A stretch of 64,000 bases of DNA from Squalus acanthias (GCA_030390025.1 CM059432.1:92754001-92818000); one strand, 5' to 3'. Positions 8,826 through 59,751 are shown, counted from the stretch's first letter. The notes: generated from the letters alone by a model not told the origin. Made by a program: numbers and translations.

Positions 8826-9674
8826 CCTTCCATCCCTTACCAGGATAGTGTCTGGGCACTCGGCTTTTTCCCTGAATAGCAGCCCAAACAGTCCCTATCC
8901 TCCACCACTCGTTTGCCTGGCTAAATTGGTTTCCATCTTGAAAATCTCTTAACTCCACTCATTTCCTCCAGGTAAAAGGACTCACTTTGGGAACTCACAT
9001 GGGTCCAAACTACCATAGAACCATAGACTGAGGCCATTTGGCCCATCGTGCCTGCTCTTTGAAAGATCTATCCAATTAGTACCATTCCCCTTTCAAGTAT
9101 TTATCCAATTCTCTCTTGAAAGTCATGACTGAATCGGCTTCCACCACCCTGTCAGACAGTGCATTCCAGATTACAACATGCTGCGTAAAAAAATGTTTTC
9201 CTCATGTCGCCTCTGGTTCCTTTGCCAATTACCTTAAATCTGTGTCCTCTGGTTACTGACCCTTCTGCCGCTGGAAACAATTTCTACCATTTACTGCATC
9301 AAAACCCTTCATGATTTTGAACACCGCTATCAAATCTTCCCTTAACCTTCTCTGCTCTAAGGAGAGCAACCCCAGTTTCTCTAGTCTCTCCGCATAACTG
9401 AAGTCTTACATCCCTGGTACCGTTCCAGTAAATCTCCTCTGCACCCTGTCTGAGGCCTTGACATCCTTCCTAAAGTGTGTTGCCCAGAATTGGCCACAAT
9501 ACTCCAGCTGGGGCCTAACCAGCGTTTTGTAAAGGTTTAGCATAACTTCCTTGCTTTTGAACTTTGTCTCTATTTATAAAGGTCATGATGTGGAGATGCC
9601 GGCGTTGGACTGGGGTGGACAAAAATGAGAAGTCGCACAACACCAGGTTATAGTCCAACAGATTTATTTAATTT

Positions 9675-9711
9675 TACAAGCTTTCGGAGCTTTTCGCTCC
9701 TTCCTCAGGTA
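9675..9711 (-). ncRNA. Minimal hammerhead ribozyme motif (PLE-type)
   Basis: tac-CTGAGGA-a-GGAGC-gaaaa-GCTCC-GAAA-GC-T-T-gta: CUGANGA core, 5-bp stem II, GAAA, palindromic AGCT stem III, 3-bp stem I. Confidence 0.75.
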
Positions 9712-11107
9712 GGTTAGCAGAGAGAGAATCTCCCAGAATTCACAATTTAAACACAGACAAAATCTATTCAAATCTTTCCCTACATCAAAGACACACTAAG
9801 AGCACAGCCAAGACAATGAGATGTGTCCCAGGGGGTCCAACGTGTCAAACCACCTGCTGGCTGCATATCCTGTCAATTTGTGTTGGTTCTTGTGTTTGTT
9901 TTTTTTTTTTTTTAAAAAGACTAACACCTGGGAAGACCGGCCATGATGTCAAGTCACGTTCTGTATCGTGACATGAACCCGATATCGCGATTGAGGCCAT
10001 CCTCATGAGTGCGGAACTTGGCTATCAGTTTCTGCTCTATGATTTTGCGCTGTCGTGTATCTCGAAGGCCGCCTTGGAGAACGCTTACCCGCAGATCCGA
10101 GGCTGAATGCCCCTGGCTGCTGAAGTGTTCCCCGACTGGGAGGCAACCCTCCTGCCTGGCGATTGTTGCGCGGTGTCCGTTCATACGTTGTCTTAGTGTC
10201 TGCATGGTCTCGCCGATGTACCATGCTCTGGAGCATCCTTTACTGCAACGTATCAGGTAGACAACGTTGGCCGAGTCACATGAGTATGTACAGTGTACCT
10301 GGTAGGTAGTGTCCTCACGTGTAATGAAGGTATCTGTGTCCATGATTTGGCATGTCTTGCAGAGGTTGCCGTGGCAGGGTTGTGTGGTGTCTTGGTTGCT
10401 GTTCTCCTGAAAGATGGGTAATCTGCTGCGAACGATGGTACTTTTGAGGTTAGGCGGCTGCTTGAAGGCGAGTAGTGGAGGCGTGGGGATGGCCACAGAT
10501 ACCATCATCACACGTGAGGACACTACCCACCAGGTACACGGTACATACTCATGAGACTCGGCCAACGTTGTCTACCTGATACGTTGCAGTAAAGGATGCT
10601 CCAGAGCATGGTACATCGGCGAGACCATGCAGACACTAAGACAACGTATGAACGGACACCGCGCAACAATCGCCAGGCAGGAGGGTTGCCTCCCAGTCGG
10701 GGAACACTTCAGCAGCCAGGGGCATTCAGCCTCGGATCTGCGGGTAAGCGTTCTCCAAGGCGGCCTTCGAGATACACGACAGCGCAAAATCATAGAGCAG
10801 AAACTGATAGCCAAGTTCCGCACTCATGAGGATGGCCTCAATCGCGATATCGGGTTCATGTCACGATACAGAACGTGACTTGACATCATGGCCGGTCTTC
10901 CCAGGTGTTAGTCTTTTTAAAAAAAAAAACAACAAACACAAATTGACAGGATATGCAGCCAGCAGGTGGTTTGACACGTTGGACCCCCTGGGACACATCT
11001 CATTGTCTTGGCTGTGCTCTTAGTGTGTCTTTGATGTAGGGAAAGATTTGAATAGATTTTGTCTGTGTTTAAATTGTGAATTCTGGGAGATTCTCTCACT
11101 GCTAACC

Positions 11108-11144
11108 TACCTGAGGAAGGAGCGAAAAGCTCCGAAAGCTTGTA
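11108..11144 (+). ncRNA. Minimal hammerhead ribozyme motif (PLE-type), mirror copy
   Basis: Same 37-nt motif as 9675-9711, on the opposite strand. Confidence 0.75.
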
Positions 11145-12949
11145 AAATTAAATAAATCTGTTGGACTATAACCTGGTGTTGTGCGACTTCTCATTTTTTT
11201 CTATTTATAAAGCCAAGGATCTTGTATGCCTTTTTAAACAGCCTTCTCAACTAGTCTTGCCACCTTTAAAGACTTGTGTACGACACCCCCAGGTCTCTCT
11301 GTTCCTGCATCCCCTTTAAAATTATAACATTTCGTTTATATTGCCGTTCCTCATTCTTTTGACCAAAAGGAACCACTTCACACTTCTCTGGATTAAATTT
11401 CATCGGCCCCGTGTCTGCCTGAAGTCAATGTCCTCCTGAAGTCTCTTACTATCCTCCTCATTGATTACTGCATTTCGGAGTTTCGTGTCATCTGCAAACT
11501 TTGTAATTATGCCCTGTATACCCAAGTCATTAATATATACATCAAAAAGAGCAGTGGTCCCAACACTGGCCCCTGGGGACACCTCTGCACACTTCCCACC
11601 AGTCTGAAAAACAACCGCTCACCACTACTCTCCTTTCTGTCCCTCAGCCAATTACGTATCCACGCAGCCAATGCCCCTTTAATCCCATGAGCTTCAATTT
11701 TACTAACAAGTCTATTGTGTGGGACTTCAAACAACTTTTGAAAGTCCATATACACAACATCAACTACACTAACCTCATCAACCCTCTCCATTACTTCAAA
11801 GAACTCACTCAAGTTAGTTAAACACAATTTGCCTTGAACAAAATGTGCTGGTTTTCATTTATTAACCATATTTTTCCAACTGCCAATTCATTCTGTCCCG
11901 GATTATTGTCTCAAAGTTTCCCTACCACCGACATTAAGCTGACTGGCCTTCAGTTGCCTAGTTCATCCCTCTCCCCTTTTTTGAACATTTGCAAACTTCC
12001 AGTCCTCTGGCACCACTCCCATACCTAAGGAGGATTGGAAGATTGTGGTCAAAACCCCTGCAATTTCCACCCTTACTTCCCTCAGCAACCGAGTATGCAT
12101 CCAATTGGACCGGGTGACTTCCCCACTTTTTAAAGTGCCTCCTCTTTATTCTATCTATTTCTCTACTGCCCCCTCCTTTCATGCGACATTGACAGCATCC
12201 TCTGGTTTTGTGAAGACAGATGCAAAGTACTCATTTAGTACCTCAGCCTCCACAAGAAGATCTCCTTTTTGGCCCAACCCTTTTTATTTATATGTTTATA
12301 AAAGACTTTTGGATTCTCTTTTTGTTACCCACCAATCTATTCTCATACACTCTTGCCCCTCTTATTTCCTTTTTCAGTTTTCCACTGCACTCTCTGTATT
12401 CAGCTTGGTTCTCTACTGAATTTTGAACCCGCTATGTCATAAGCCTCCTTCTTCGGTTTCATTTTAATCTCTATATCTTTAGTCATCTAGGGAGATCCAG
12501 CTTCCTTTCCCCTCATGGGAATGTGTCTAGTCTGTACACAAACTATCTCCTCTTTGAAGGCCTCCCATTGCTCATTTCCTGTTTCACCTGCCAATCTTTG
12601 ATTTCAATCCACCAGGGCCATATTCCTTTTCAACTCAGGTAATTTAACTCTTCTCCAGTTGAGTATTTTCACATTTGATTTTCCTTGTCCTTTTCTACAA
12701 CTACTCTAAACCTACTGAATGTTAAATACTCTGTTCCAATCCTACTCCAGACCCCTCCCAGACTTCAATTATATTGGATTACTGTTTGGTACTACTGCCT
12801 GCTCTCAACTATTGAAGAATTTAATTAACAATGCTTCAGATTTCTACCCACCCCTCACCTTTACCTGGTCCATCCAGATTCCTTTCTTCCTGGACTTTTG
12901 TATGTTCAGGAATAAGCTTTCCACAGACTAGCCCACCAAATCCCACACA

Positions 12950-21839: not shown

Positions 21840-22500
21840 AGCAGCGCGCTCCCCTAGAAACAGCGCTCGTGGACCAATTCAAATAAAGCGGCGACGCCTC
21901 AAGGCTCCAGTTTTAATTCGGCGGAGTTCAATTTACCTTCGTTTGAAGTGTCCATCCCTCGTTCTTTCTTCACAAATACTGATAAGGGGCGGGGTGGGGG
22001 AGGAGAAAAAACCCGTTCTGACTGGGCGCTGGATCTACCTGCGCCGCGCTTGTTATTGCCGCTCCTCTCCGCCTCCCCTAACAGCGCTGCCACCCCGCTC
22101 TTATCCAGCCGCCGCAAACAAGACAACCAACCAATCAACCTCCCCCTCCCCGATTAACCGCTTTTTGCAATGCCTGGCGTGCGGTGTCAGCTAACGTCAT
22201 CGCGCACGTAAAACGGACTCGCCAGCGGTGGCACGTGTTGGCTTTATTTTCGTGCGACTTCGGGAGAAAGCTTGGGCTCGCGCGCAGGCGCACGCTGCGC
22301 TCTTTGTTGCTGAGTTCCCTCATGTTAGTGTTTGGAGTGAGACTTCTTCTTTCCTATGGTAGCAGCAAAGCAAATCAAATGTCAGTATCTAAGTCAGGTC
22401 AAAGCTTCCGGTGTAACAGCATTGTAGGCTGCCTGCGAGTTTCCTCTGAGGAGTGGGTTCTGCCGCTGCGTGTTGGCAGGAAGCTGAGCACGTAAATGAA
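21840..22500. promoter_or_regulatory. CpG-island promoter, possibly bidirectional
   Basis: Sharp CpG enrichment in non-repetitive DNA; GC box 21986-21994, CCAAT 22131-22135, CRE half-site acgtca 22194-22199, E-box cacgtg 22232-22237, NRF1-like cgcgcaggcgca 22281-22292, ETS-like cttccggt 22405-22412. Confidence 0.75.
21937..21955 (-). CDS. Candidate coding end of a first exon (MDTSNE, phase-1 donor); may be a uORF
   Basis: gggATGG Kozak context followed by GAAG|GTaaat donor at the edge of the CpG island. Confidence 0.4.
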
Positions 22501-22854
22501 GCAACATTGCTTAAAATCCTGTCTAAACGTATTGGAAGCTGTGTTTTATTTTTTAATACTGAGATAGGCCAGGTCTCGAAACTAAAGCGAGTGACTGTCG
22601 CTCCCAATGATTATCGCTAATATGATTATTCAATAAAAATGTATTTTTTCAAGATCACAAGATCAACGAGGACAGTCACCCAGCTAGTTTTAGCTAATTT
22701 GCCCAGAAAGAACCGACAGTCTGCTCATAATGGTATCCAGTTATTTATTAAATGATTCCAGGCCTTTTGCCAACACTATTTTATCTGGAAGTTCATTTCA
22801 CGTGTTGCTATGAAGTCTGTGAAGAAGAACTTCTGACATCAGTCTCAAATTTAC

Positions 22855-24690
22855 AGAAGCAAAATACTGCAGAGGCTAGAAATCTGAAATAAAAACAGAA
22901 AATGCTGGAAATACTCAGCAGGTCAGGCAGCATCTGTGGAGAGAGAAACAGAGTTAACGTTTCAGGTTGGTGACCTTTCATTAGAACTGGAAAAAGTTAA
23001 GAGATGTAACAGATTTTAAGCAAGTGCAGAGGCTGGGAAAGAGTAACAATAAGGAAGATTTGTGATAGGGTGGAAGGCAGGAGAGATTAAATGACAAAAG
23101 GGATGATGCTGCGAGGCAAAAGGAGATGGTAATGGGACAGGTAAAGAAACAAAAGATGGGTCTAGAGGAGGTGCAAATGGGAATAGCAGAATCATCAACA
23201 ACTGCCATCCGAAAAAATGGGGACATAGGTTATGATCTGAAATTGTTGAACTCAATGTTGAATCCGGAAGTCTGTAAAATGCCTAAATTGAAAGATGAGA
23301 TGCTGTTCCTCGAGCTTACGTTGAGCTTCACTGGAACAGTGTAGGAGGCCGAAGTCAGAGTGGGAGTGGAGCAGAGAATTAAAGTGACAGGTGACTAGAA
23401 GTTTGGGTGGACTGAATGGAGGTGTTCCACAAAGCAGTCACCCAATCTGCATTTGGTCTCCCCAATGTAGAGAAGACCGCATACACTAGGTTGAAAGTAC
23501 AAGTAAATCGCTGTTTCACCTGGAAGGAGTGTTTGGAGCCTCAGACGATGGGAAGAGAAGGGGGGAGAGTAGAAGTGCGGGAAATGTAACAGACAAGGTC
23601 GAGGGCCATGTCTACCACGGTGGAGGGGAATCCTCAGTTGAGGAAAAAGGAAGACATATTGGAAGCACTGGTATGGAAGGTGGCTCCATCAGAAAAGACG
23701 TGACAAAGAAACTGGGAGAATGGAATAGAGTCCTTAAAAGAAGCAGGTGGGAGGAAGCGTAGTTGAGGTAGCTGTGGGAGTCAGTGGGCTTATAGAGGAT
23801 ATTAGTCAATAGCCTATCCCCAGAAATGGAGACAGAGAAGTCGAGGAAGGGAAGGAAAGTCAGAGATGGACCATGTGAAGGCGAGGGAATCGTGGAAATT
23901 GGAAGCAAATTGATGAAATTTTCCAGTTCGGGGCGAGAGCAGGAAATGGCACCAATACAGTCATCAATGTACCGGAAAAAGAGGTGAGCAAGGGGACCTG
24001 AGTAGGACTGGAACAAAGAATGTTCAACATATCCCACGAAAAGGCAGGCATAGCTAGGACCCATATGGGTTCCCATAGAAACACCTTTGATTTGGAGGAA
24101 GTGTGTGGAGTCAAAGGAGAAGTTGTTCAATGTGAGAATAAGTTCAGCCAGGCAGAGGAGGGTGGTGGTGGAGACTGGTTGGGCCTCCGTTCATGGAAGA
24201 AGCGGAGCGCTCTCAAGCCGTCCTGGTGGGGCATGGAGGTGTAGAGGGATTGGACGTCCATAGTGAAAAGGAGATGGTTAGGGCCAGGAAACTGGAAACT
24301 GTTAAAGTAGCGGAGGGCGTCAGAAGAGTCACGGATGGAGGTGGGAAGAGACTGGACAAGGGGAGAAAAAAATAGAGTCAAGATAGGAAGAAATCAGTTC
24401 TGAGGGACAAGAACAGGCTGACAGGATGGGTCTACCAGGGCAGTCCTGTTTGTGGATCTTGGGAAGGAGGTAGAAGCGGGCTTTGGGGGACTATGAGATT
24501 GGAGGCCGTGAAGGGAATATCTCCAGAGGAGATGAGGTCAGTGACAGTCTTGGAAATGATGGCTTGATGTTCGGTAGTGGGGTCATGGTCCAGGGGGAGG
24601 TAGGAGGAGGTGTCAGAGAGTTGCCGTTCAGCCTCCGCAAGGTAGAGGTCGGTTCGCTAAATAACAACAGCGCCACTCTTGTCAGCAGTC
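22855..24690 (-). mobile_element. Degenerate Penelope-like element (RT to 3' end, internal deletion)
   Basis: GVSMGTHMGPSYACLFVG, FRYIDD and FTMDVQSLYT motifs; 3' region matches 50157-50410; mutated hammerhead (CTAATGA core) at 22952-22988. Confidence 0.88.
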
Positions 24691-29354: not shown

Positions 29355-32225
29355 TGGACCAAATACCAGTGGTACCACCACTGACCAAGCTGGCTGAGTC
29401 CTGAAGGACATAGCTGTCAGACTACCTTAGAATATGGAACAGCAGGCATACCTTAGAATAGGGAACACATCTAGTGAATAGACAGAACTAAGCAGTCCTA
29501 CAACCAACAGATCAGAGAAAACCTCTGTAATACTACCACATCCAGTCAAGAATGGTGAGAGAGAATCATGCAACTAACAAGAAGATTTCCATGATCAACC
29601 ATAGTGGAGCTCACCATGCGAGTGCAAGAGACAAGGCTGGAGTGTTTTCAGCCAAAAGTGCTGAAGGAGGAATTAAAGGAAATTAGTATTAGTAAAAAAA
29701 TAGTGCTGGAGAAATTAATGGGATTGAAAGCTGATAAATCCCCAGGGCCTGATAATCTGCATCCCAGAGTGCTAAAAGAGGTAGCCATGGAAATAGTGGA
29801 TGCATTGGTTGTCATCTTCCAAACTTCTATAGATTATGGAACAGTTCCGGCAGATTGGAGGGTGGCAAATGTAACCCCACTATTTAAAAAAGGAGGGAGA
29901 GCGAAAACCGGGAACTACAGACTGGTTAGCCTAACATCAGTAGTAGGGAAAATGCTAGAGTCTATTATAAAGGATGTGATAATAGGACACTTAGAAAATA
30001 TCAACGGGATTAGACAAAGTCAACATGGATTTATGAAAGGGAAATCGTGTTTGACAAACCTACTGGAGTTTTTTGAGGATGTAACTGGTAGAATAGATAA
30101 GGGAGAACCAGTGGATGTGGTGTATTTGGATTTTCAGAAGGCCTTTGATAAAGTCCCACATAAGAGGTTAGTGTGCAAAATTAAAGCACATGGGATTGGG
30201 GGTAATATACTGGCATGGATTGAAAATTGTTTAACAGACAGGAAACAGAGAGTAGGAATAAATGGGTCTTTTTCGGGGTGGCAGGCGGTGACTAGTGGGG
30301 TACCGCAGGGATCAGTGCTTGGGCCCCAGCTATTCACAATATATATCAATGATTTGGATGAGGGAACCAAATGTAATATTTCCAAGTTTGCTGACAACAC
30401 AAAACTAGGTGGGATTGTGAGTTGTGAGGAGAATGCAAAGAGGCTTCAAGGCGATTTAGACAAGTTGAGTGAGGGGGCAAATACATGGCAGATGCAGTAT
30501 AACGTGGATAAATGTGAAGTTATCAACTTCGGTAGGAAAAACAGAAAGGTAGAGTATTATTTAAATGGTGATAGATTGGAAAATGTTGATGTACAAAGGG
30601 ACCTGGGTGTCCTTGTACACCAGTCACTGAAAGCAAACATGCAGGTGCATCAAGCAGTTAGGAAGGCAAATGGTATGTTGGCCTTCATTGCAAGAGGATT
30701 TGAGTACAGGAGCAAGGATGTCTTACTACAGTTGTACAGGGCCTTGGTGAGACCACACCTGGAGTACTGTGTGCAGTTTTGGTCTCCTTACCTAAGAAAG
30801 GATATACTTGCCATAGAGGGGGTGCAGCGAAGGTTCACCAGACTGATTCCTGGGATGGCAGGACTGTCGTATAAAGAGAGATTGGGTCAACTAGGCCTGT
30901 ATTCACTAGAGTTTAGAAGAATGAGAGGGGATCTCATTGAAACGTATAAAATTCTGACTGGGCTAGACAGACTGGATGCAAGGAGGATGTTTCCCCTGGC
31001 TGGGGGGTCTAGAACGAGGGGTCACAGTCTCAGGATACGGGGTAGGACATTTAGGACTGAGATGAGGAGAAATTTCTTCACTCAGAGGGTGGTGAACCTG
31101 TGGAATTCTCTACCACAGAAGGCTGTGGAGGCCAAGTCACTGAATATATTTAAGAAGGAGATAGATAGATTTCTAGACACAAAGGCATCAAGGGGCAGAG
31201 AGCGGGAATATGGTATTGAGATAGATGATCAGCCATGATCATATCGAATGGCGGAGTAGGCTCGAAGGGCCGAATGGCCTACTCCTGCTTCTATTTTTCT
31301 ATGTTTCTATGTGCTGAGTGGATGATGCTACTGGGCCTCCTGCCAAGGTCCTCATCCTTATAGATGGCAATGTCCAGCCAATTCATTTCGCTACACATGA
31401 CATTAAAAAATGGCTGAGTGCACTGAACACATCAAAGGTTATGGGCCCTGACAACATCCCAGGTGTAGTACTGAAGAACTGTGCACCAGAGTTAGCTGCT
31501 CCCCTAGCCAAGCTGTTCCACTACAGCTAAGACACCAGCCTCTATCCTCCCAATCACCACCGACCGCTATCCACCCTTCCCAATCCCAATCACTGCTACC
31601 CTCCCTCGCAATCACCCCCTTTCCATTCGCCTCCCTTCCCAATTGCCCTCTCTCCCGATCTGCTGCCATTGCAGCAGCCCGATCTTCGAGTCCTCTTCTC
31701 CAGCGATGCCCATTAGATGTCCACAGCTCACCGGTTCAATGATAATGAAGCCCCCGGCCCAATAATATGTGCACCTCAAGCCTATCCTGTCAGGCGCAGG
31801 GATCATTCCAATTTTGGGCACGTTCTATAAACTTCAATAAATCTAACCTGACCAACTACTGCACTATCAGCCTCTTCCCAATCATCAGTAAAGTGATGGA
31901 AGGAGTCTTTTATAGTGCCATCAGGCAACACCTACTCAGGAATAACCTGATCACAGTTTGGTTTCCACCAGAACCACTCGGCTCATACCTGATCATAGCC
32001 TTTATCCAGACATGGACGCAAGAGCTGAATCCCAAGAGGTGAGAGTCATTGCCTTCAATATCAACGCGGCACTCCTCTGAGTACAGCACCAAGGAGCTCA
32101 AGCAAAACTGAGTTCAATGGGGGTCAAAGCGAAAACCCTTCAGTGACAGGAGTCATACCTGACGCAAAGGAATATGGTTGTGGCTTTCAGAGGCCAGTCA
32201 TCACAGCCCCAGGATATCACTGTGT
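29355..32225 (+). mobile_element. Degenerate family-B LINE, interrupted by a CR1 and by an unassigned insert at about 31535-31820
   Basis: MGPDNIPGVVLKNCAPELAAPLAKLF and NY..ISLFPIISKVME motifs; sequence continues across the gtgctga duplication. Confidence 0.75.
29665..31310 (+). mobile_element. Young 5'-truncated CR1 LINE with uninterrupted RT reading frame
   Basis: Most of ORF 29604-31238 (544 aa) with a complete RT motif set (catalytic FADD appears as FADN); 7-bp TSD gtgctga at 29658-29664 and 31311-31317; ctatgtttctat tail. Confidence 0.92.
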
Positions 32226-35872: not shown

Positions 35873-36781
35873 AACACCTGCTTCAGCAGCTTCATCAATG
35901 AACTTCCTTCTGTCATAAGATCAGGAGTGGAGCTTTTCACTGACAATTCTAAAATATTCATCTGCATTCACAACTCTTTCCATAATAAAACAGCCAAGCC
36001 CACGCAAGCCCCTAGTTTTTGGATTCTCCCACAAATGGAAACATTCTCTCCACATCTACCCTGTCAACCTATTCATAACTTTAAAGACCTCTGTCAGGTC
36101 TCCTCTTTGTCTCTTTTCTAAAGAAAAAGGCCCAACCTGTTCAATCTTACCCGATAGCTGTAATCTCTCAGTTCTGGTACCATCCTTGTAAATCTTTTTT
36201 GTACTTTCTCCAGTGCTTCTATGTCCTTTTTATAGTATGGAGACCTGAACTGTGCATAGTACTCTAAGTGCAGACTCACCAGGGTCCTATACAAGTTTAA
36301 CATAACTTCTCTACTTTTGAATTCTATACCCCTAGAAATAAATCCCAGTGCTTTGTTAGCATTTTTTATTGTTTTGCTGACCTGCAATGCTGCTTTAAAT
36401 GATTTGTTCACCTGTAGCCCTAGGGGTAGAAATTAGGTCGCGCCCCATTTGGGGCGCAAATATCGTCCGGACGCAAATATTAGCGCCTGGCGCTAATTAT
36501 TGGCACTGACAGGAAACTTCACTTTTACCGCCCCGGGAGGTGAGTGGAGCGCTAAAGCAGGCGCTGCACACCTGTCTTAAGGCGCAAAGGCCAAGGAGTG
36601 AGGCGCTAACTCAGCGCGCGAGCGCAGCGCAGCTGCTGCCAGTTAGCGAGGGAACACAGACACACTGGCGCCGGACACTTCTTAAAGCGGGGGGGGACCC
36701 CTTGCTCCCCAGCCACACCCTGCTCATTGCAGCCTTGAATCTCAGCCTGGAGAGACCTGTGAATCCATTTTGCTGCCAAGC

Positions 36782-38712
36782 ATGGAGAGGATGAGAGAAT
36801 GCGCTCATCGCTTCACCGAGCGGGCCTTGGATGCTCTGGTTGACGCAGTGGAGCGCAGACGATGTATGCTGTTCCCTGAGAGTGGCAGGAGGCCTTTGCC
36901 ACGCGAGTTCAGAAGAGTGTGGAGGGAGGTGGCTCAGAGCGTCTCCTCCAGGAGCATGGTGCCCAGGACCCATACTCAATGCCGCAAAAAGTTCAACGAC
37001 CTCACTCGGGTCGTCAGGGTGAGTGGCTTTTTCTCAATACCTCTCCATCCCTCCATCTCAACCTCACTCTATGGCCAGAGGGTCTTAAAACCCCAATGCA
37101 CAACACTCATCCAACACCTATGGCCCTTTCATCAAACACACACACACATTCCACACTTTGCATACAGTAAGGGCTATTCACCTATGGGAGGCACATCAGG
37201 CAAGACCATGGCTGCATACAGTAAGGGCTATTCACCTATGGGAGGCACATCAGGCAAGACCATGGCTGTATATTGTAAGGGCTATTCACCTATGGGAGGC
37301 ACATCAGGCAAGACCATGGCTGTATATTGTAAGGGCTATTCACCTATGGGAGGCACATCAGGCAAGACCATGGCTGTATATTTACTCAGATGCTGTCCTT
37401 TTTCTTGCAGGCTAAGCTGGCTCATAATAGGAGACAGCAGCAACGGACAGGTGGAGGGCGGCTTCAGCTGCAACCCCTCAGCGATCTGGAGGAGCGCGTC
37501 CACAGGATTGTGGCAAGCCGGGTGATCGGTCCCGTCGCCACTGGAGACGCCGACCCCGTTGTGGACAGCAATGGTAAGGTCATCACCTTTTTGTCCTCTG
37601 TCCTTCCACTTGTCCCTCACAACACCAGCCTTTGACACTTTCAATCCAACTTGCTAACTCGCTGCACTTATTCCTCCCTTACTGCCACCCTGTCCTCACG
37701 CTAAAGCCACTCTTGTACCTCCCTGCTTTCAGATGGTGATTCACCAGCTGAGGAGACGGGCCCTGAAGCTGCCACTGGGAGTGATGCTGCAGCCGAGGAG
37801 GAAGAGGAAGCCAGAGCATCAGTGCCACCCTCTCCCGAGGAAGCCCATGCCCACACTGGGAACACGCCTTCCCCGGAGGGGAGCAGGGGGGAAGGGGCTG
37901 ATGATGGTGAAGCTCCAGGACCCAGCGGGCTGCAGCAACGCCATGGTGGGGGTAGGGAAGAACGGGGGCCTTCTCCCCAGAGGGAGAGTATGCCAGACAC
38001 TCCTACTGCAATGGACGCAGAGGAGGAGCGGCTGATTGCAGAAATGAATACCCAGGCGGTGGGCATGCACACTGAGCTCATGGGTGCAGTGGGAAGGGTG
38101 CCCGAATGCATTGAGTCACTGGCAAGGAGTGTGGAGCACTTCGCTGTAGCACAGGCGGATGCCACACTAACGCTTAGTGCTGCAATTCAGTCACTGGCTG
38201 CCGTGATCCCACCTCTGACTGCTCTCATACAGACTCAGATGGAGGCCACGCGAGCACAGACTGCTGCCAACCTCGATGGTTCGTGCACATGTCCCCGGGG
38301 CTGTCACCGCGCCGCAGCAGGCCAGCAATCTGTTCTCCGGCAGATTGCTCCGGATGCTGAAGTGCTGCCCCGTGGGAGTGCCAGTGTGTCGGGCGAGCAG
38401 GGAGTTGCTGGCCTCTCTCACGATGACAGCATTCCTGCTGCCAACACTGTCACTTCTCCACTGCACTTGCCACCGCCTGTAGGACAGACTGCTGCCGCCC
38501 ATGCAGAGTTGGTGCAGTCTGCAGCCGGGCCCTCCAGGCCCAGAAGTGGTCGAGGCCGTCCTTCAGGGGCATCTGCAGTGTCAGGGTCTGACGAGCAGCA
38601 GCCTTCCACCAGCCTTGCTGCAGCCACTGAGGTCCCATTACGGAGGAGCAGTAGGGTTAGAAGGGGGGAAGTGTGCAAGGGAAGGAGATCACCCTCGAAG
38701 GGCAAAAAGTAG
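36782..38712 (+). CDS. Harbinger Myb/SANT-like DNA-binding protein; exons 36782-37018, 37411-37573, 37733-38712 (459 aa if spliced as predicted)
   Basis: RFTE..LDALV...LFP...W.EVA......PRT..QCRKKFNDL; GT-AG introns (gtgagt/ttgcag, gtaagg/tttcag) join in frame with no stop; KLAHNRR...RTGGG in exon 2. Confidence 0.85.
37160..37382 (+). repeat. 54-bp tandem repeat, about 4 copies, in intron 1 of the Myb-like gene
   Basis: gggctattcacctatgggaggcacatcaggcaagaccatggctg recurs at 37171, 37225, 37279 and 37333. Confidence 0.95.
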
Positions 38713-39006
38713 GAGATGTGACAAAATGCTGGTCATTTTTTTATTAAAGGCCGAGGTTCATGGTCCAACTTTTGTTTAGTGTTTTAGACATTATCTCCAG
38801 GTTGTGAGAACCAGTTATGTTATTGACTGTTTTTTTGTGTTTATTTCTATGAGTTTGTCATGAGGAATTGACACACACAGAGTTTGTAAAATAAATAAGT
38901 TTCTGTATTCAAAATATACATGGCTGGTGGTTGGAATTATTGGTGCCTTGGCCGGCTTAGGGGTTGCGTGCTGGGTTGATTAGTGTTTGTAGCAATGGCA
39001 GGGGCC

Positions 39007-40150
39007 CTAGAAGCGGCTTGCTATTAGTCGTTGACGGACGGCCCTTGCAGTTTGACCATTGTGGGCCGCGCTCCTGCCTTGGTGCTGCTGATGATCATCG
39101 TCCTCGTCCTCTTCCTCCTCTTCCTCCTCCTCCTCTGGTGGTGCTACAAGGCCTGGTGGCATTGGCTGGGTCCTGAGGTTTGCCATGTTGTGCAACATGC
39201 AGCACACGACTACGAAGTTCGAAACTTGCTCAGGCGAGTACTGCAGGGCTCCTCCGGAATGGTCCAGACAGCGGAACCGTTGTTTCAGCACGCCGATTGT
39301 GCGCTCAATAATGTTCCTGGTTGCTTGATGGCTTTCATTGTACCGCAGCTCAGCAGGGGTGTTTGGCGTACGGAGCGGTGTCATCAGCCAGGTGCTCAAT
39401 GCGTACCCCTTGTCCCCGAGAAGCCAACCAACTGGCTGATGCGGTGCCTCGAAAACTTCTGCCACAGTAGTCTGGCGCAGGATGAAAGCATCGTGGCAGC
39501 TGCCCGGATAGTGGGCATTGACAGCGACTATCATCTGTCTGTGGTCACAGACCAACTGCACATTCAAGGAATGGAACCCCTTTCTGTTCCTGAATTCCTT
39601 TGCATTCTCTCGCGGAGCACGCAAAGCCACATGTGTGCAGTCAATGGCGCCCTGCACCATGGGGAAGCCCGCTACCCTCGCAAAGCCCAGAGCGCGGTCA
39701 CGCTGCTTGTCTGGGGTCATAGGGAAAGAGATGAAGTCTCGTCTCCTTCTGAAGAGGGCATTGGTGACCTGCCGGAAACTGGGAGATATTGGCGAGGTCC
39801 CCAACAGCAGCTTGGAATGAGCCAGTGGCGTAGAAGTTCAAAGCCACTGTGACCTTCACTGCCACCGACAGAGACGTCCTGGACCTCAGCTGAGGCTGCA
39901 GATCTGGCTGCAGCAGGTGGCAGAGCTCAGTGACCACCTCCTTGCTGAATCGCAGCCTTCGCAAACACAGCTCCTCGGACATATGGATGTAGGAGAGCTG
40001 TTCACGATATACCCTGGGAGGGTAAGCTCTCCTGTACATGCGCCTGATGGCCCTCCTCCGTCTGGCCATCATTGCCACTCTCTGTCTGCGTCTTCGTATC
40101 CTCCGATTCAGCTGGAGCAGGACGACGCCCCCAATCATTGCAGCCCCCAT
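39007..40150 (-). pseudogene. Harbinger DDE transposase (HARBI1-like family) with one frameshift at about 39775
   Basis: ORFs 39698-40150 and 39007-39804 overlap; motifs GAIDCTHV, YPGSCHDAFIL, LLGDKGY, RNIIERTIGVLKQRFRCL, CCMLHN and an acidic tail. Confidence 0.92.
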
Positions 40151-42131
40151 ATTCTATTTGCCAGAAAAGTAATGAGGTACAGCAACTAAAGTAGCAACAA
40201 AGTTAGGATGAATAGGCAAAACTACCTCACAAAGCGTTGAGTCAATGTAGAAGTCTCTCTCTCTCTCTCTCCGAATCTCTCTCTCTCTCTCAGAACGAGT
40301 GGTGCATAAATGTCGACCACAGAAAAAGAGGCCCCCTTTAAATAGCGCCCCCCCCAGCCCCACACCGATTGATAGCGTTCCAGTCTTCCGGTCGTTGGAA
40401 GCGCCAGGCGGTAAGGCAGGGGGCGCCACTCAATTTCCGCTCCGGGGCGCCCCAAGGGCGTTGCACCATGGAATGACGTCACAATCTGCGCGCGCAGGTG
40501 GTCGCAGCGGTAAGTTTTAGCGCCGCCGCACAATCTCAAGTTAAGTTCTCGAGCGGCGCAAACATCGCTGCGCCCGGGCGTTAGCGGCTTAACGCCCCAT
40601 TAGCGCCCTCTTAAGGCGCTAACGGGAGGCACAACCAAGTGAATTTTTACCCCCTAGTTTCTTATTTTCTAAGATGTTTCTGATTTCCTACCAAAGTGCA
40701 TCACCTCACATTTATCTATATTAAAGTTCATTTGCCTCTTAACTGCCCAGTCTGCAAGTTTTCTAATGTCATATTGTATTATGTTGCATTCTTCCTCAGT
40801 GTTAGCTATACCGCTGCCACCCACCCCGCCCCCCTCTCCCCCCCCCTCCCCTCCACCCCCGACACCCCCCGCCAGTTTGGTATCATCTGCAAATTTTGAT
40901 ATTGAATTACTTGTTCCGAAGTCCAAATTATTAATGTAAATTATGAATGACAGTGTCCCAGCACTGATCCTTGTGGAACACCATTTTCTACCTTACTCCA
41001 ATCTGAATATCTACCCTTTACCCCTACTCTCTGCTTTCTATTTTTTTTAGCAAATTTGCTATCCATTCAGCTATTTGTCCGCTGACTCCACATGCCCTAA
41101 CCTTTGTCATGAGCCTACCATGTGGTACTTTTGGTTTTACATCTCATCTGAAAGACAGCACCCTCCAACAGTGCAGCACTCCCTCAGTACTACACTGGAG
41201 TGTCAGCCTTTTGAAAATCTAAGTATATGACATCTACCGAATTCTATCAGGTTAGTTACGCATGACTTAGCCTTTTGGAATCCATGCTGACTATTTTTTA
41301 ATTATATTTTCTGTCTCTAGATGCTCTTCTATCACTTCTTTTAGTATAGATTCCAGTATCTTTACTTCACGTCTATAGTTCCCAGACTTTGTTCTATCTC
41401 CTTTTTTATATCTAGAAACAACATTAGCTGTCCGCCAGTCCTCTGGCACAACCCCCTCTTCTATAGAACTTTTGTATATATAAACTAGTGCCTCTGCTAT
41501 CTCCTCCCTAGTTTCCTTGAGTATGCGTGGGTGCAGACCACCCAGACCTGGGGTTTAATCCTCTTTTAGTTTTGCTAGTTTGTCAATTATTTTCTTCCTT
41601 TCTATCTCAACTGTATTAATATTCTTTTAAAGATTATCCTCCAGTGAAGTGTCTATTTTGTTATCTTCTTTAGTAAAAACTGAGGTGAATTAGCTATTCA
41701 GTACTTCTGCCATTTCTCTGCCATTACCTATGAGTTATCTTGCTCCTCCTTTAGTGGCCCTGTCCCTACATGTTCAAGGAGTATGATGGAATATTCATCA
41801 CTGGCCTTTATATCAATGATTTTCTAACTCGGCTCTCTAGGAATGTGTCAATATTTACAGGGAATCTCATCACAGAAAAGAAAGAACTTTCATTTGTAAA
41901 ATTTTATTTATCCATACAGAATTTGATTTTGTGTGATCTACTTGAGGCTAACCATAAACTTTGGTTCACCATTTGCTACAAACTTGCTTCAAATGGGTCA
42001 TCAGGATGTTGAACTCGCTAATCAACAAAGCTTGAAATTAATAATGTAGCAGAGAATGTTTTAGAATTATTTCAGTGAATTATTTTGGGTCATTATACTG
42101 TTTTCACTTTTGTCTCAATGTGGAGAGATAC

Positions 42132-43316: not shown

Positions 43317-46300
43317 GGGCCTAGAAATTCGGTAGTCCCCGAAAACGTGCGCAGGGATCACAATGTGCAATCAACCTGTGCCCTTTCAGAGGAATGCAGG
43401 CAGCACACGAACTTTCATGATTGTGGCTTACAGTCCAGCGCTGAATGCGCTGCTGAATGGCTGAATGCTCAGCAGGGGGCCCAAGTTCGTGCGAGGCTAG
43501 CACTACTTAAAGCTAGCCTGCACTACTTAAAGGCAGTCTGCACCTCTTAAAAGGGAGGTGCATTCTGCCTGAAGCAGCTCATTGAACTGGCTGGTGCGCA
43601 AGAACAACAACTAATGATGGCACAACTGGGGAGAGAACATGCACAAAGGTTCTTGGATGCAGCACTGGAGGCCTTGGTGCAGGAGCTGGATAGGAGGAGA
43701 AAGGTCCTGTTTCCACAGGGGATCAGGAGGCCCTCCAGGCAAAATTGCAAACGGCAGTGGGAGCAGATAGTCATAGCTGTCAATGCCAGCAGTGTAGCCC
43801 CCAGGACCTGGCTGCAGTGCAGGAAGATGTTTAATGACCTCACACAAGTGGTCAAGGTCAGTGACTTCGTCTTCAAATGCCATATCCCATCATCTGCACC
43901 ACAAGCTTCACACACTGCTCATCACTCACCTACCAACAATCTCTACCAAACACGACTCATAAGAACATAAGAAATAGGAGCAGGAGTAGGCCATTTGGCC
44001 CTTCGAGCCTGCTCTGCCATTTAATAAGATCATGGCTGATCTTCTACCTCATCTCCACTTTCCTGAACTATCCCCATATCCCTTGATTTCCTTAATATTC
44101 AAAAATCTATTGATCTCTGTCTTGAATATACTCAATGACTGAACCTCCACAGCCCTCTGGGGTAGAGAATTCCAAAGATTCACCACCCTCTGAGTGAAGA
44201 AATTTCTCCTCATCTCAGTCCTAAATGGCCGACCCCTTATTCTGTGACTGTGACCCCTGGTTCTAGACTCCCCAGCCAGGGGAACCAGCCTCCCTGCATC
44301 TACCCAGTCAAGCCCTGTAAGAATTTTGTATGTTTCAATGAGATCACCTCTCATTCTTCTAAACTCTAGAGAATATAGGCCTAGTCTACTCAATCTGTCC
44401 TCATAGGACAATCCCCCCATCCCAGGAACCGGTCTGGTGAACCTTCATTGCAGCCCCTCTATGGCAAGTATATCCTTCCTTAGGTAAGGAGACCAAAACT
44501 GTACACAATACTCCAGGTGTGGTCTCAATTTCCTAATTGCTTGCTCTCCCTGCATGTTAACTTTCAGTGATTCGTGTACAAGGACACCCAGGTCCCTCTG
44601 AACACCAACATTTCCCAATCTCTCACCATTTAAAAATACTCTGTGTTTCTATTTTTCCTACCAAAGTGGATAACTTCACATTTCTCCACATTATATTCCA
44701 TTTGCCATGTTCTTGCCCACTCACTTAGCCTGTCTATATCCCCTTAAAGCCTCCTTGAATCCTCCTCACAACCTACTTTCCCACCCAGCTTTGTATCATC
44801 AGCAAACTTTGATATATTACATTTGGTTCCCTCATCCAAATCACTGATGTAGATTGTGAATAGCTGAGGCCTGAGCACTGATCCTTGCGGTACCCCACTA
44901 GTTACAGCCTGCCAACTCAAAAATGACCCGTTTATTCCTACTCTCTGTTTTCTGTCCATTAACCAATCCTCAATCCATGCTAGTATATTACCCCCAATCC
45001 CATGAGCCCCAATTTTGTTTAATAACCTCTTGTGTGGCACCTTATTGAATGCCATCTGAAAATCCAAATACACCACATCCACTGATTCCCCCTTATCTAT
45101 TCTGTTAGTTGCAACCTCAAAAAACTCCAACAGATTTGTCAAACACGATTTCCCTTTCATAAATCCCTGTTGACTCTGCCCAATCCTATTATTATTTTCT
45201 AAGTGCCCTGTTACCACGTCCTTAATAATAGATTCTAGCATTTTCCCTACTACTGATGTCAGGCTAACTGGTCTGTAGTTCCCCATTTTCTCTCTCCCTC
45301 CTTTCTTAAATAGTGGGGTTACATTTTCTACCTTCCAATCCGCGGGAACCGTTCTCGGATCTTTGGAATTTTGGAAAATGACAACCAATGCATCCACTTT
45401 CTCTATAGCCAACTCTTTCAAAACCCTAGGATGTAGGCCATCAGGTCCAGGGGATTTATCGACTTTCAGTCCCATTAATTTCTCCAGTACTACTTTTTTC
45501 TAATATTCATACCTCATATCCACAGCTTCACCTCACCCTCACACTTACCAATGCTGCAAGCCTCACACCCATATCTCACAGCTTGCACACACTGTCAGCT
45601 ATTCAACCATGACAGGCACATCATCCAAAAACTTTGCACCAGACTCACTGACAAGCTTTCCTTTTTCTTGCAGAACAAGGTGGCTCACAATCGGAGCCAG
45701 CAGGAGCTTCCCGAAGAGGCACAGGCGCGCCTGCATACTCTTACCCACTACGAGGAGATGGTGCTGGCCATTCTTGGGACGGCAATCGCTAAACCCGTGG
45801 CCAGTGGCGGGGCTGAATATATCCAAAATGATGGTATCCTCATTCCTAATCCTGCTTCTCACATCCCACTTCCCCTCATCCCACAATCTCTTCTGATTTA
45901 CAAGCTGCACATGGTGTAACCATACACCTCTTTGCTTTTCCCCCTCCCCTCACTACAACCCTACCCTTGTGCCTTTCTCATTTCAGAGACCAAAAATATC
46001 CAATCTACCCAGCCAGTGGTGCAAGAAGAAGAGGGAGAGAAGAATGATTATGAAGAAGAAACACTGTCACTTGATCTGACGCTCGCAGCCATCAGCTCAG
46101 ATATTGGCACTGTGTGGACTTTAGATTGTAGCTTCGAAGTGGGACCTGCACGTGATGACTCACCAGGCAGGAGTAGGCTGCAACCAGGGCAGGGGGACAG
46201 GGTAGCGCAGGTGCCAGGTCCCCAGAGGGCGAGGTCGCACACGAGTTCTGCTGCACAGGACTCAGATGAGGACTTCGATGGGGCGGCCTACAGAAGAATG

Positions 46301-47635
46301 CTGATGGGTAAGCACACCAAAATGCTTGGTGCATTGGCAGGCCTGCCAGAAAGGTGAGTGCAATGTCAAGGAGCATGGTGTAGTCTGGCACCAACCTTGC
46401 ACAGGGTTTGTGCAGAGCTTGGAGCCCATGATTTCTAGCATGGAAGTGATGGCCAACTCCTTTAGCACACTTGTGGACTGAACCATGATGCAGCGTCTGA
46501 TGGCTAATGTCTTAGCTTCCATTGTAGCACAAGCAGAAGCCACCCAACGTCTGAGGGCTGCAGTTGAAGCTCAAACTTCTGTCATGCAAGCTCAGACTGC
46601 AGCCATTGTGGCTGCATTTACCAGTGTGGAAAAGGGCTTGCAAGGTGTCACAGCATTCCAGCAATCTGTTCTCCAACAGATGGTTAGGAATGCTGAGGTG
46701 CTGCCCCGGGGCATGTCAGTGGCTCCGTGGAGCATGAATCTGCTGTCCTTTCTCAGTATGACAGCATTCATCCTCCCACCACTACCACTCTGCCAGTGTC
46801 CTTGATGTTGCCTGTCAGCCAGCCAGCCCAGACTGCTGCCAACCATGCCGAGGTGGTGCAGTCCACAGCCGGGCATTCTAGGCCCAGAGCTGCTCGAGAT
46901 TGTCCTGCAAGGCCATCTGCAGTCTCCCCCACTGAAAGTCAGCAGTCTTCCACTAGCCATGCTGCAGCCATTGGGGTAGCACTTCATAGGAGCACTAGGA
47001 CAGGTAAAGGCACACTGAAGACAGGCATTAAGGGAATGCACAAGGATGATTCGTTGACTTTGTTATGTAATATTAGATGGATTGATGTATAAAGTTGGAT
47101 TGGAATGTTTCTTTTGTGGTGGCTTTTATTTCAGCATTGTGGCCAAGAGGACACTGTGATGGTCAGTAACAGAGGGCAGGTAAGGTGTGGGACTATAGCT
47201 GAATGAGGAATTGGGGTTGCGTTCTCTGGTACCACATTTGGATGAGTCAATCATGGACAGCCCTGGCAGAAAGGGGCAGACTGGGTTGCCTCCTCCCTTC
47301 CGCTTCCTCCTCTTCTGCTTCCTCCTCTTCCGCTTCCTCCTCCTCTTCCTCCTCCTCCTCCTCCTCAGCTGGTTGCCGTATGCCTGGCGGCAAAGGCTGA
47401 GTCCTCATGGTGGCGAGGTTGTGGAGCATGCAGCAGACCATAACGAATCTTGAGACGTGCTCTGGTGAGTACTGCAGGATTCCTCCAGAGCAGTCAAGGC
47501 AGCAGAAGCGTTATTTAAGGACACCAAAGGTCTGCTCTATTAGATTCCATGTGACAGCATGGCTCTCATTGTATGCATGCTGTCTACATGTGGGTAGATT
47601 GCAGAGTGGAGTCATGAGCCAGGTGGTCAGCAGAT
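43317..47635. mobile_element. Older Harbinger element (Myb-like exons on plus, transposase C-terminus on minus), interrupted by CR1 and truncated by RTE
   Basis: TIR-like gggcctagaaatt at 43317; exon 43614-43856 (WLQCRKMFNDLTQVVK|gtcagt), exon 45674-45833 (NKVAHNR), exon from 45987; VCCMLHNLA with poly-Glu at 47247-47441 on minus. Confidence 0.85.
43958..45505 (-). mobile_element. 5'-truncated CR1 LINE in intron 1 of the older Harbinger Myb-like gene
   Basis: ORFs 44744-45475 and 44049-44420 closely match the 29665-31310 CR1 protein. Confidence 0.9.
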
Positions 47636-50155: not shown

Positions 50156-50255
50156 TACAAAAAGAAAATACTGCAGATGCTGGAAATCTGAAATAAAAAC
50201 AGAAAATGCTGGAGATACTCAGCAGGTCAGGCAGCATCTGTGAAGAGAGAAACAG

Positions 50256-50292
50256 AGTTAACGTTTCAGGTCGATGACCGTTCGTCAGAACT
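50256..50292 (-). ncRNA. Minimal hammerhead ribozyme motif (second PLE family)
   Basis: agtt-CTGACGA-ac-GGTC-atc-GACC-t-GAAA-CG-T-T-aact: core, stem II, palindromic ACGT stem III and 4-bp stem I (agtt/aact). Confidence 0.75.
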
Positions 50293-50416
50293 GGAAAAAA
50301 GCAGGAAATGGAACAGATTTTTAAGCAAGTGTGGGAGCTGGGAAAGGGGGGAGGGGATGAAAGAACAAAAGGAAGGTCTGTGATAGGATAGGAGGCAGGA
50401 GAGGTTAAGAGACATT

Positions 50417-51307
50417 GGGGTAAAAATTCAGTTGGTTGCGCCTCCCGTTAGCGCCTTAAGAGGGCGCTAATGGGGCGCAAAGCCGCTAACACTCGGGCGC
50501 AGCGATGTTTGCGCCGCTCGGGAACTTAACTAGAGATTGTGCGGCGGCGCTAAACTTTACCGCTGCGACCACCTGCGCGCGCAGATTGTGACGTCATTCC
50601 ATGGTGCAACGCCCTTGTGGCGCCCCGGAGCGGAAATTGAGTGGCGCCCCCTGCCTTACCGCCTGGCGCATCCAACGACCAGAAGACTGGAACGCTATCA
50701 ATCGCTGTGGGGCTGGGGGGGGCGCTATTTAAAGGGGGCCTCTTCCTGTCTTTTATTGTTGGTGGCATTTTTGAACTACGCATTCTGAGAGAGAGGGAGA
50801 GACTTCTGGAGAGATTCAACGTTGTGTGAAGGAGTTTTGGGTACTGAGCAGCACTTTGCAGGTTCATTTTGATTTGCCATTCCTTGTATCGATTTAGCAG
50901 AGACTGTGGGAGCTGCACTCTGAGCTCTTTGCCTGGTACTCTCCATTGTTCTTTCCAGCACATTTGATGTGCAAGTCTCTCCAGGCCGAGATTCAAGGCT
51001 GCAATGAACAGGATGTGGATGGAAAGCAAGATTAACCATCCCCTTTAAGAACTGGCCCGTGCCATTGTGTGTGTGTTCCATTGCTGACTGACATTACATG
51101 AGCTTCGCCAGCGCTCTGAGGTAGCGCCTCACTCCTTGGCCTTTGCGCCTTAAGACAGGTGTGCAGCGCCTGATTTAGCGCTCCACTCACCTCCCGGGGC
51201 GGTAAAAGTGAAGTTTCCAGTCAGTGCCGATAATTAGCGCCAGGCGCTAATATTTGCGTCCAGACGATATTTGCGCCCCAAATGGGGCGCGACCTAATTT
51301 TTCCCCC
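50417..51307. mobile_element. Non-autonomous Harbinger element (891 bp) of the 36423-40653 family, opposite orientation
   Basis: TIRs ggggtaaaaatt / aatttttccccc; TSD ATT at 50414-50416 and 51308-51310; ends nearly identical to both ends of the long element. Confidence 0.93.
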
Positions 51308-52699
51308 ATTAAGAGATATTCAAGGCAAAAGGAGATGGTAATGGGACAGGTTAAGAAATAAAAGATGGCTCTAGATGAAGTGTAAATTGCGCGGGCAGAA
51401 TGAAAGACAGCTGCCATGTGGGAGAGAAGAGAAAAAAAAAGGTGGAAAAAAATATATATATGATAGGGGCCGAGGTTATGATCTGAAATTGTTGAACTCT
51501 ATGTTGAGTCCAGAAGGCTGTAAAGTGCCTAATCGAAAGATGAGGTGCTGTTCCTCGAGCTTACGTTGAGCTTCAGTGGAACAATGTAAGAGGCCGAGGA
51601 CGGTGAGGTCTGAGTGGGAGTGGAGCGGAGAATTAAAATGACAGGCGACCGGAAGCTCGAGGTCCCCCTTACGGACTGATCGGAGGTGTTCCGCAAAGTG
51701 GTCACCCAATCTGCGTTTGGTCTCCCCAATGTAGAGGAAACCGCATCGTGAGCAGCGAATACAGTATACTAAATTGCAAGAAGTACAAGTAAATCGCTGT
51801 TTCACCTGGAAGAGATGTTTGTGGCCCTGGACAGTGGGAAGGGGTGAGTTATAAGGGCATGTGTTGCATCTCCTGCGCTTGCACGGGAAGGTGCCGGGCG
51901 AAGGAGAAGGGGTGTTCTGGGTGATAGAGGAGTGGACCAGGGCATCGTGGAGGGAGCGGTCCCTTCGGAATGCTGAAAGGGGAGGTGAGGGGAAGATGTG
52001 TTTGGTGGTGGGATCACGCTGGAGGTGGCAGAAATGGCGGAGGATGATCTGTTGAATGTGGAGGCTGGTGGGGTGAAAGGTGAGGACAAGGGGAACCCTA
52101 TCATGGTTCCGGGAGGGAGGGGAAGGGGTGAGGGCAGAAGTGCGGGAGATAGAACGGACACGGTCAAGGGCCATGTCAACCACAGTAGAGGGGAATCCTC
52201 GGTTGAGGAAAAAGGAAGACATGTCGGAAGCACTGGTATGGAAGGTGGCATCGTCAGAGCAGATACGGCGGAGACGGAGAAACTGGGAGAATGGAATAGA
52301 GTCCTTACAGGAAGTGGGGTGGGAGGAAGTGTAGTCCAGGTAGCTGTGGGAGTCAGTGGGCTTGTATTGAATGTTTGTCAATAACCTATCCCCAGAGATG
52401 GAGACGGAGAAGTCGAGGAAGGGAAGGGAAGAGTCGGAGATGGACCATGTGAAGGTGAGGGAAGGGTGGAAATTGGAAGCAGAGTGAATGAAATTTTCTA
52501 GTTCAGGGAGAGAGCAGGAAACGGCACCAATACAGTCATCAATGTACCGGAAAAAGAGGTGAGGGAGGGGATCTGAGTAGGCCTGGAACAAAGAATGTTC
52601 CACATATCCCACGAAAAGGCAATGTACTGGAAAAAGAGGTGAGGGAGGGGACCTGAGTAGGACTGGAACAAAGAATGATCCACATATCCCACGAAAAAC

Positions 52700-59417: not shown

Positions 59418-59610
59418 GAAAATGCTGGAAATACTCAGTAGATCAGGCAGCATCTGTGGAGAGAGAAACAGAGTTAATGTTTCAGGTCAATGATCGACCT
59501 GAAACGTTAACTCTGTTTCTCTCTTCACAGATGCTGCCTCACCTGCTGAGTATTTCAAGCACTTTCTGTTTTTATTTCAGATTTTCAGCGTCCGCAGTAT
59601 TTTGCTTTTG
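59418..59610. mobile_element. Short fold-back element made of two inverted PLE 3' ends
   Basis: About 59418-59488 is the reverse complement of about 59496-59565; both match the PLE 3' UTR at 50160-50272; 9-bp TSD taattaaga at 59409-59417 and 59611-59619. Confidence 0.85.
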
Positions 59611-59751
59611 TAATTAAGAAGAGAACTGGGCTGCTGAGGAGCAGGAGGATATACTGAAGGAAGAGGAGGAAGACCCTCCAGAAAGGACCCAGGGTAATCA
59701 ACCACCAAATGGAAGAACGTCAATCTAGGGACTTTCTCCTAAACTACTCAT

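Follow-up and report, generated by a model that had tools for sequence, protein, structure and literature searches.

A palindromic Penelope-like element insertion of known layout in the genome of the shark Squalus acanthias

The DNA analysed here, a 64-kb stretch of the Squalus acanthias genome (below, the window), is repeat-rich shark DNA in which an old minus-strand CR1 LINE is interrupted at 9582-11199 by two copies of a Penelope-like element (PLE) joined head-to-head and flanked by the copies of a target-site duplication (TSD; Table 1). A palindromic PLE insertion had been observed at this position in an earlier sequence-only reading, and that observation is confirmed. The inverted arms, expected to be nearly identical and about 720 bp long, measure 723 nt on the left (9621-10343) and 710 nt on the right (10489-11198) and are 97% identical in BLASTN. 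They differ by 7 substitutions in 710 aligned columns and by 13 nt of indels, with three gaps in an A-rich run, and no difference of any kind is found across about 370 nt of coding sequence. The 3' extension of the left arm, also described earlier, is indeed absent on the right.

Table 1. Coordinates of the features at the palindromic insertion and of the candidate host-gene exon (positions counted from the first base of the window).
Feature	Position	Strand	Description
Host CR1-like LINE, downstream part	9094..9581	-	From protein alignment
Left TSD copy	9569..9581	+	13 bp, 85% A+T
Main 5'-truncated PLE copy with tail	9582..10494	-	913 nt; reading frame open between 10493 and the stop (9954-9956)
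Tail, main copy only	9582..9620	-	39 nt, 69% A+C
Minimal type I hammerhead, main copy (predicted)	9675..9711	-	Stems I and II of 3 and 5 bp; cut predicted after 9678
PLE protein C terminus	9954..10493	-	179 aa: CX4CxxC linker, then GIY-YIG, with two cysteines inside the core
Apparent spacer	10344..10488	-	Unduplicated 5' part of the main copy; holds the CX4CxxC linker
Inversion junction	10489..10494	.	5/6 bases equal to 10338-10343; placement deduced from homologue residues on either side
Inverted tail-less copy	10495..11198	+	704 nt, shorter; in-frame stop at 10552-10554
Minimal hammerhead, inverted copy (predicted)	11108..11144	+	Same sequence as the left one; cut predicted after 11141
Host CR1-like LINE, upstream part	11200..12133	-	Decayed RT region; from protein alignment
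Right TSD copy	11200..11212	+	13 bp, exact match to the left copy
Probable first exon, minus-strand host gene	21937..22156	-	GT donor 21936-21935

The two TSD copies are identical at 13/13 positions, cannot be extended to 14, and represent the only two occurrences of this 13-mer in the whole window. When a CR1 protein translated from 29595-31238 of the same window is aligned across the site, the alignment runs to residue 367 at 11200 and restarts at residue 370 at 9564. The host frame is thus broken between these two positions, which indicates that one event split the old CR1; together with the exact 13-mers, this supports the earlier claim of a single insertion event with a 13-bp TSD. The single base that lies between the short arm and the right TSD copy (11199) is unlike the native continuation of the element, and the next two TSD bases fit the tail; this base is possibly a mispaired or untemplated first base at priming.

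The 145 bp between the arms had been taken for a spacer, an interpretation that had to be abandoned, since this segment continues the PLE reading frame of the left copy. The minus-strand frame is open from there into the left arm, and shark homologues match the main copy from residues A-I onward, at its 5' start. Among the contig matches listed, a joint between 10344 and 10494, on opposite strands, is present in 4/4 sequencing runs, and loose contig ends are found before 10489, from which it follows that other copies run natively from the apparent spacer into the arm. The loop of the palindrome is the overhang of the longer copy and not a separate spacer. Bases 10489-10494 are part of the main copy and agree with the beginning of the second copy at 5/6 positions, a microhomology that accounts for one of the seven arm substitutions. 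At the opposite end, the loose ends behind 11198 of 74 contigs of run X2 (among the matches listed) have a consensus that starts with the 39-nt tail. One arm was used in this contig comparison; the variants listed number 40 of 202 rows, the joints 15 of 935, and the loose ends 24 of 7025. The palindrome structure itself depends on the genome assembly, the inversion junction and an empty site not being among the contig matches listed.

A GIY-YIG coding end had been proposed for each arm, and this is borne out by the motif, visible in the translation of the fragment, and by shark PLE homologues, although the frame in the right arm contains a stop, located at a cysteine conserved in 16/16 aligned shark homologues. 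The translation of the fragment has no Pfam match of its own, and homologue P0031 gives a GIY-YIG match above the Pfam cut-off. In the homologue search, in which 48 of 146 candidates obtained a score, the best match was an RT-bearing protein of Heptranchias perlo (P0001), with 88% identity and 99% of the query covered; the eight that follow come from sharks or from unnamed eukaryotes. The RT, located upstream in P0001, was lost at the locus itself by truncation. Directly before the C-terminal GIY-YIG, the 10344-10488 region carries a CX4CxxC motif. In the passages of Craig et al. 2021 (PMC8557442) that deal with linkers, a CX2-5CxxC motif marks Neptune or Nematis and is missing in Penelope/Poseidon. 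Since this linker is present, the element appears to be of the Neptune/Nematis type, an assignment made on one motif, and the Penelope/Poseidon clade was dropped. The features in common with the Neptune and Nematis clades are the CX4CxxC linker, the C-terminal GIY-YIG with two internal cysteines, and the RT upstream in the homologues; the linker motif does not separate Neptune from Nematis here.

Two further observations concern the coding sequence. The end of the tail (9582-9586, minus strand) consists of ATG plus two bases and would read M-T, and a full-length 882-aa homologue (P0021, 52% identical) begins with M-T; judged from these letters, the tail end may lie just inside the ORF of a next copy. 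PLE endonuclease pieces are also present in NCBI shark gene models (P0006, P0019, P0020, P0023, and P0041) that are named as cytochrome P450, septin 5a, XRCC5, PPP1R12A, and IQCK, reflecting either exonisation or annotation error.

A search with Rfam gave no hammerhead at either of the two thresholds. The published descriptor of minimal hammerheads, taken from the supplement of PMC4209133, gave exactly two matches in the window, one per arm, and none in 200 shuffled windows, so that the intact minimal hammerhead claimed for each arm is predicted here as well. By this descriptor, the element has the hammerhead in its 3' end or pLTR that is a trait of EN+ PLEs. In minimum-energy folds, either of the monomer or of two strands, no hammerhead shape was obtained and stem II alone was formed. 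Dimeric action of the ribozymes, another part of the earlier reading, does not hold in cis: each read-through RNA would contain one sense copy, which makes a cis dimer impossible, and in the predicted hairpin this copy is wholly paired with the antisense one. In the accounts consulted, minimal hammerheads show poor cleavage even in dimeric form (PMC4209133), and cleavage by the hammerhead of an anole PLE required protein (PMC11167929).

The minimal hammerheads of metazoan PLEs in the sections of Cervera and de la Pena 2014 (PMC4209133) that describe them share with the present ones the descriptor, matched here with an extra base before stem II, and the palindromic 15.2-16.2 pair. In Schistosoma, hammerhead pairs on opposite strands are described there as lying 100-700 bp apart, compared with 1.4 kb in the present case, and stem I, which has 4-5 bp in the Schistosoma families, is reduced here to 3 bp, the minimum allowed by the descriptor. 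Among the matches listed, about half of the X2 depth at 11127 lacks one base of loop II, representing other copies of the family, and loose ends at 11142-11149 show different sequence just 3' of the cut site. A non-LTR retrozyme, described in the text available of bioRxiv 10.64898/2026.07.22.740005 as tandem repeats with the hammerhead in at least 2 consecutive units and no coding sequence, was rejected, since there is no tandem array at the palindrome locus and a coding remnant is present. A 23-base motif of the 3' end of the element was found at 0 loci in metagenome and viral contigs. We propose that the hammerheads are passengers of the 3' end of the element.

The insertion is single, young, and dead. 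Its youth follows from the retention of CpG, with an observed/expected ratio of 0.94 in the coding arm versus 0.24-0.32 in the flanks, combined with the perfect TSD. A common source of both arms is indicated by a sense A at 10638/10194, present in both although G accounts for 99.9% of the family depth (among the variants listed), and by four residues in the outer 105 aa that are common to both arms and are found in no aligned shark homologue (21 homologues were included in this comparison, at most 18 of them covering any listed column). The family is very abundant: the contig depth summed over the PLE bins in two DNA runs reaches 7e5-1.2e6, a sum that is not a copy number, and the depth of most contigs from unique stretches is about 8-26.

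A candidate gene on the minus strand had been suggested, if real, to carry the palindrome in its intron. Its probable first exon, near 21937-22156, is backed by RNA-type contigs, whereas a downstream exon was not found. One contig each of runs X8 and X11 ends at 21935, two bases into the minus-strand GT donor, and continues for 365 and 1196 further letters, respectively; the two runs come from two studies with two organism codes and are presumed to be of RNA type. Contigs that end in this manner make it likely that a spliced minus-strand transcript begins about 11 kb upstream of the palindrome, and on balance the palindrome probably lies in an intron. Five candidates for the next exon, none of them tied to a protein, came out of a crude minus-strand splice scan of 1-22400; a 37-nt exon candidate (20517-20481) was discarded, as its start lacks two bases implied by the RNA contigs. 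The region of 21850-22450 is GC-rich and promoter-like; besides the minus-strand first exon, it may hold a plus-strand exon near 22300-22390, noticed by eye.

Any RNA reading through the insertion would, as anticipated, be able to form a long hairpin, with a predicted minimum free energy of about -1455 to -1479 kcal/mol and 91-94% of the bases paired on either strand. The RNA-type runs have zero cover in 6/30 bins, all of them unique intron-like stretches, which carries no weight either way. The counts of A>G and T>C are alike in the RNA-type runs (37/31 and 36/32) and in the DNA runs (40/31 and 40/33), and contigs of a large family cannot show editing at a single locus. In lizard, Penelope repeats are reported, in the portion of PMC5625713 available, to contain over 40,000 editing sites, with palindromic repeats as strong targets. 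If the site is intronic, the hairpin would probably be an ADAR target in the way of any pair of inverted repeats, and would have no particular role.

The inverted-end layout of PLEs with minimal hammerheads, which the sequence-only reading had invoked, is recovered here as an inverted truncated copy, a one-sided 39-nt tail, and a TSD. In the account of Craig et al. 2021 (PMC8557442), PLEs typically have a truncated, inverted copy adjoining the 5' end and a tail of 30-40 bp on one side; complex PLE insertions bounded by a TSD are described in the relevant part of Arkhipova et al. 2013 (PMC3846280), and the inverted layout is mentioned in a section of a curation guide (PMC8969392). The layout traits of EN+ PLEs (a 30-40-bp tail at one end, an inverted truncated copy, and a TSD) are all found at the present locus. 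It shares with the EN+ PLE complex insertions described in those parts of PMC3846280 and PMC8557442 the head-to-head inverted copy, the one-sided tail, and a host that is another retroelement. The TSD is 13 bp long here and 8-10 bp in the rotifer EN+ PLE cases described there; both copies are cut inside the ORF, and the arms of about 710 nt include the GIY-YIG end, compared with rotifer pLTRs of roughly 200 bp. Unlike in those complex insertions, there is no full ORF and no direct pLTR. That the insertion is a shark PLE of Neptune/Nematis type with the known layout of inverted copy, one-sided tail, and TSD is close to certain as regards both identity and layout. The insertion is real and well accounted for, and it belongs to a known kind, its layout having already been described for PLEs. 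In the literature on Penelope in sharks or chondrichthyans and on edited inverted repeats, searched through titles and the beginnings of abstracts, with most subscription papers outside the search, palindromes of this family were not found. The single locus matters little, being a clean instance of a layout already known, in a shark family that is very abundant, and its value is that of a data point on how PLEs build their inverted ends.

Taken as a whole, the locus is very probably best explained as a young, dead PLE insertion, somewhat more likely than not built by priming on both target strands. At the start, the GIY-YIG nuclease would nick the two strands 13 bases apart at an AT-rich site in the old CR1; the stagger is recorded in the TSD, and the role of the enzyme is assigned by analogy with the anole element in vitro. 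One nicked strand would then prime reverse transcription at a distal start site, yielding the 913-nt copy with the tail, and the other would prime 39 nt further in, yielding the tail-less copy of 704 nt; both end points are present in the sequence, and the priming is deduced from them. Both cDNAs would end early, anneal via the microhomology of 5 of 6 bases, and have their gaps filled, leaving the head-to-head repeat, with the junction observed directly and the repair supposed. L1 5' inversions arise by twin priming, in which two primers come from one staggered break and are joined by microhomology. There, the inverted part derives from a different, upstream part of the RNA, whereas here the same 3' end would have been copied twice, giving a palindrome.

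The protein of PAc, a Poseidon element of the green anole characterized in vitro, is reported in the available sections of Frangieh et al. 2024 (PMC11167929) to cut and extend both strands, favouring DNA that is AT-rich, and to start reverse transcription from two internal sites whose spacing equals the tail. PAc and the present element have in common the AT-rich target, the AC-rich tail, two end points one tail apart, and a similar distance between the ribozyme cut and the end of the tail (96 nt here from the predicted cut, and 85-92 nt from the coordinates given in PMC11167929). PAc belongs to a different clade, and its ORF begins in stem II; in the present element, the hammerhead core has no ATG, and the tail contains a single ATG, within its final five bases. 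With its clean TSD, two end points, and microhomology, the locus agrees with the result of two start sites in anole, here in another clade.

Two-strand priming is preferred by a modest margin of belief over fold-back, an unlikely but serious alternative in which the first cDNA folded onto itself at the microhomology and served as its own template, the tail being lost when the intermediate was resolved. Such self-priming has been proposed for head-to-head PLE junctions (in the part of PMC3846280 that treats them), and it would suit the identity of the arms over about 370 nt of coding sequence, with their common rare variant, as well as the 1-nt loop of a mini-palindrome elsewhere in the window (59414-59612); the microhomology and the shared variants are compatible with either route equally well. 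However, three derived changes that can be polarised with protein homologues sit in the left arm only, near the junction, and plain fold-back copying would have duplicated them in the right arm, so that they lean against it, unless they are later mutations, which they could be. The short arm also ends at the tail boundary, a known start site of reverse transcription (PMC11167929, as above), and the junction hairpin is within chance, 19/200 shuffles folding as well; structure in the 39-nt tail is within chance too (84/200). A fold-back artefact of the assembly is extremely improbable: palindromes are hard to assemble (noted in PMC8557442), and the inversion junction is absent from the independent contig data, among the matches listed, but the TSD in a continuous CR1 frame, the one-sided tail, the microhomology junction, and the different alleles in each arm are unlike a chimeric read. 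The idea that the palindrome is kept in an intron as a functional RNA, serving as a source of double-stranded RNA or siRNA or as a ribozyme switch of the host gene, is very improbable. The probable minus-strand first exon 11 kb upstream, the very stable predicted hairpin, and the two hammerheads intact by the descriptor would agree with it; against this, the insertion is a young member of a very abundant family, its youth alone would account for intact ribozymes, and a cis dimer is impossible.

The distribution of the arm differences bears on a further alternative. Apart from the one at the junction, 5/6 mismatches lie within 60 bp of it (P of about 4e-5 taking either end and 5e-4 taking any window, values that give the order of magnitude, the bounds in the calculation being one base short). 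The sites lie at 10278-10328, at 10504-10554, and at 9721/11098, and at all six the left arm has a plus-strand A. In the four mismatches that can be polarised with homologues, the derived base is a plus-strand A, on the left arm three times and on the right once. This is a post-hoc pattern of six sites, and the cited literature leaves its cause unexplained; error-prone synthesis at the join, damage to single-stranded DNA close to the hairpin loop, failure of arm-to-arm conversion to reach these sites, or errors in the consensus could each have produced it. [quoted passage not shown] The clustering next to the junction would accord with such conversion, and so would the copy-private residues (4/50 in the apparent spacer versus 4/105 in the outer part, the latter all common to both arms), but the CpG retention and the perfect TSD speak for youth, 13 nt of indels separate the arms in the A-rich run, and the protein contrast is weak, the outer part being the more conserved domain and the homologues coming from other species; this history is improbable. 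Returning to two-strand priming, we can speculate, with only slightly less doubt, that long PLE palindromes record their own integration, both target strands being primed on a common source RNA and some 60 final bases next to the microhomology join being synthesized or repaired in an error-prone manner with an A bias on one strand. If true, mismatch counts over many shark insertions would provide a genomic test of two-strand priming versus fold-back, or else reveal arm-to-arm conversion in palindromes of retroelement size; junction-clustered, strand-biased mismatches recurring across many insertions would separate the two mechanisms.

Several other elements are found in the window. The mini-palindrome mentioned above is a second head-to-head PLE palindrome, of another family, about 200 bp long with 78-nt arms and its 1-nt loop inside hammerhead stem II; a second case of the layout in the window, it is longer by about 42 bases on its right side, and its direct repeat measures 9 bp (59409-59417 / 59611-59619). 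Two longer copies of this second family are located at 50156-52717 and 22852-24190 (minus strand); one such copy has an open stretch of 413 aa that includes an RT end and GIY-YIG, and its 3' region is interrupted by a different element with inverted ends (50406-51307). In both DNA runs, 11193-11196 is joined to 16643 at depths of 148-477 (among the matches listed), connecting the tail-less PLE end with LINE-like sequence; the matching side comprises 20-24 letters only, and the join suggests a chimera multiplied elsewhere in the genome. The regions of 36400-40700 and 43500-47600 contain transposase and Myb/SANT-like ORFs and are, judging from their translations, presumably Harbinger-like DNA transposons, one of which includes a 54-bp tandem array at 37167-37382.
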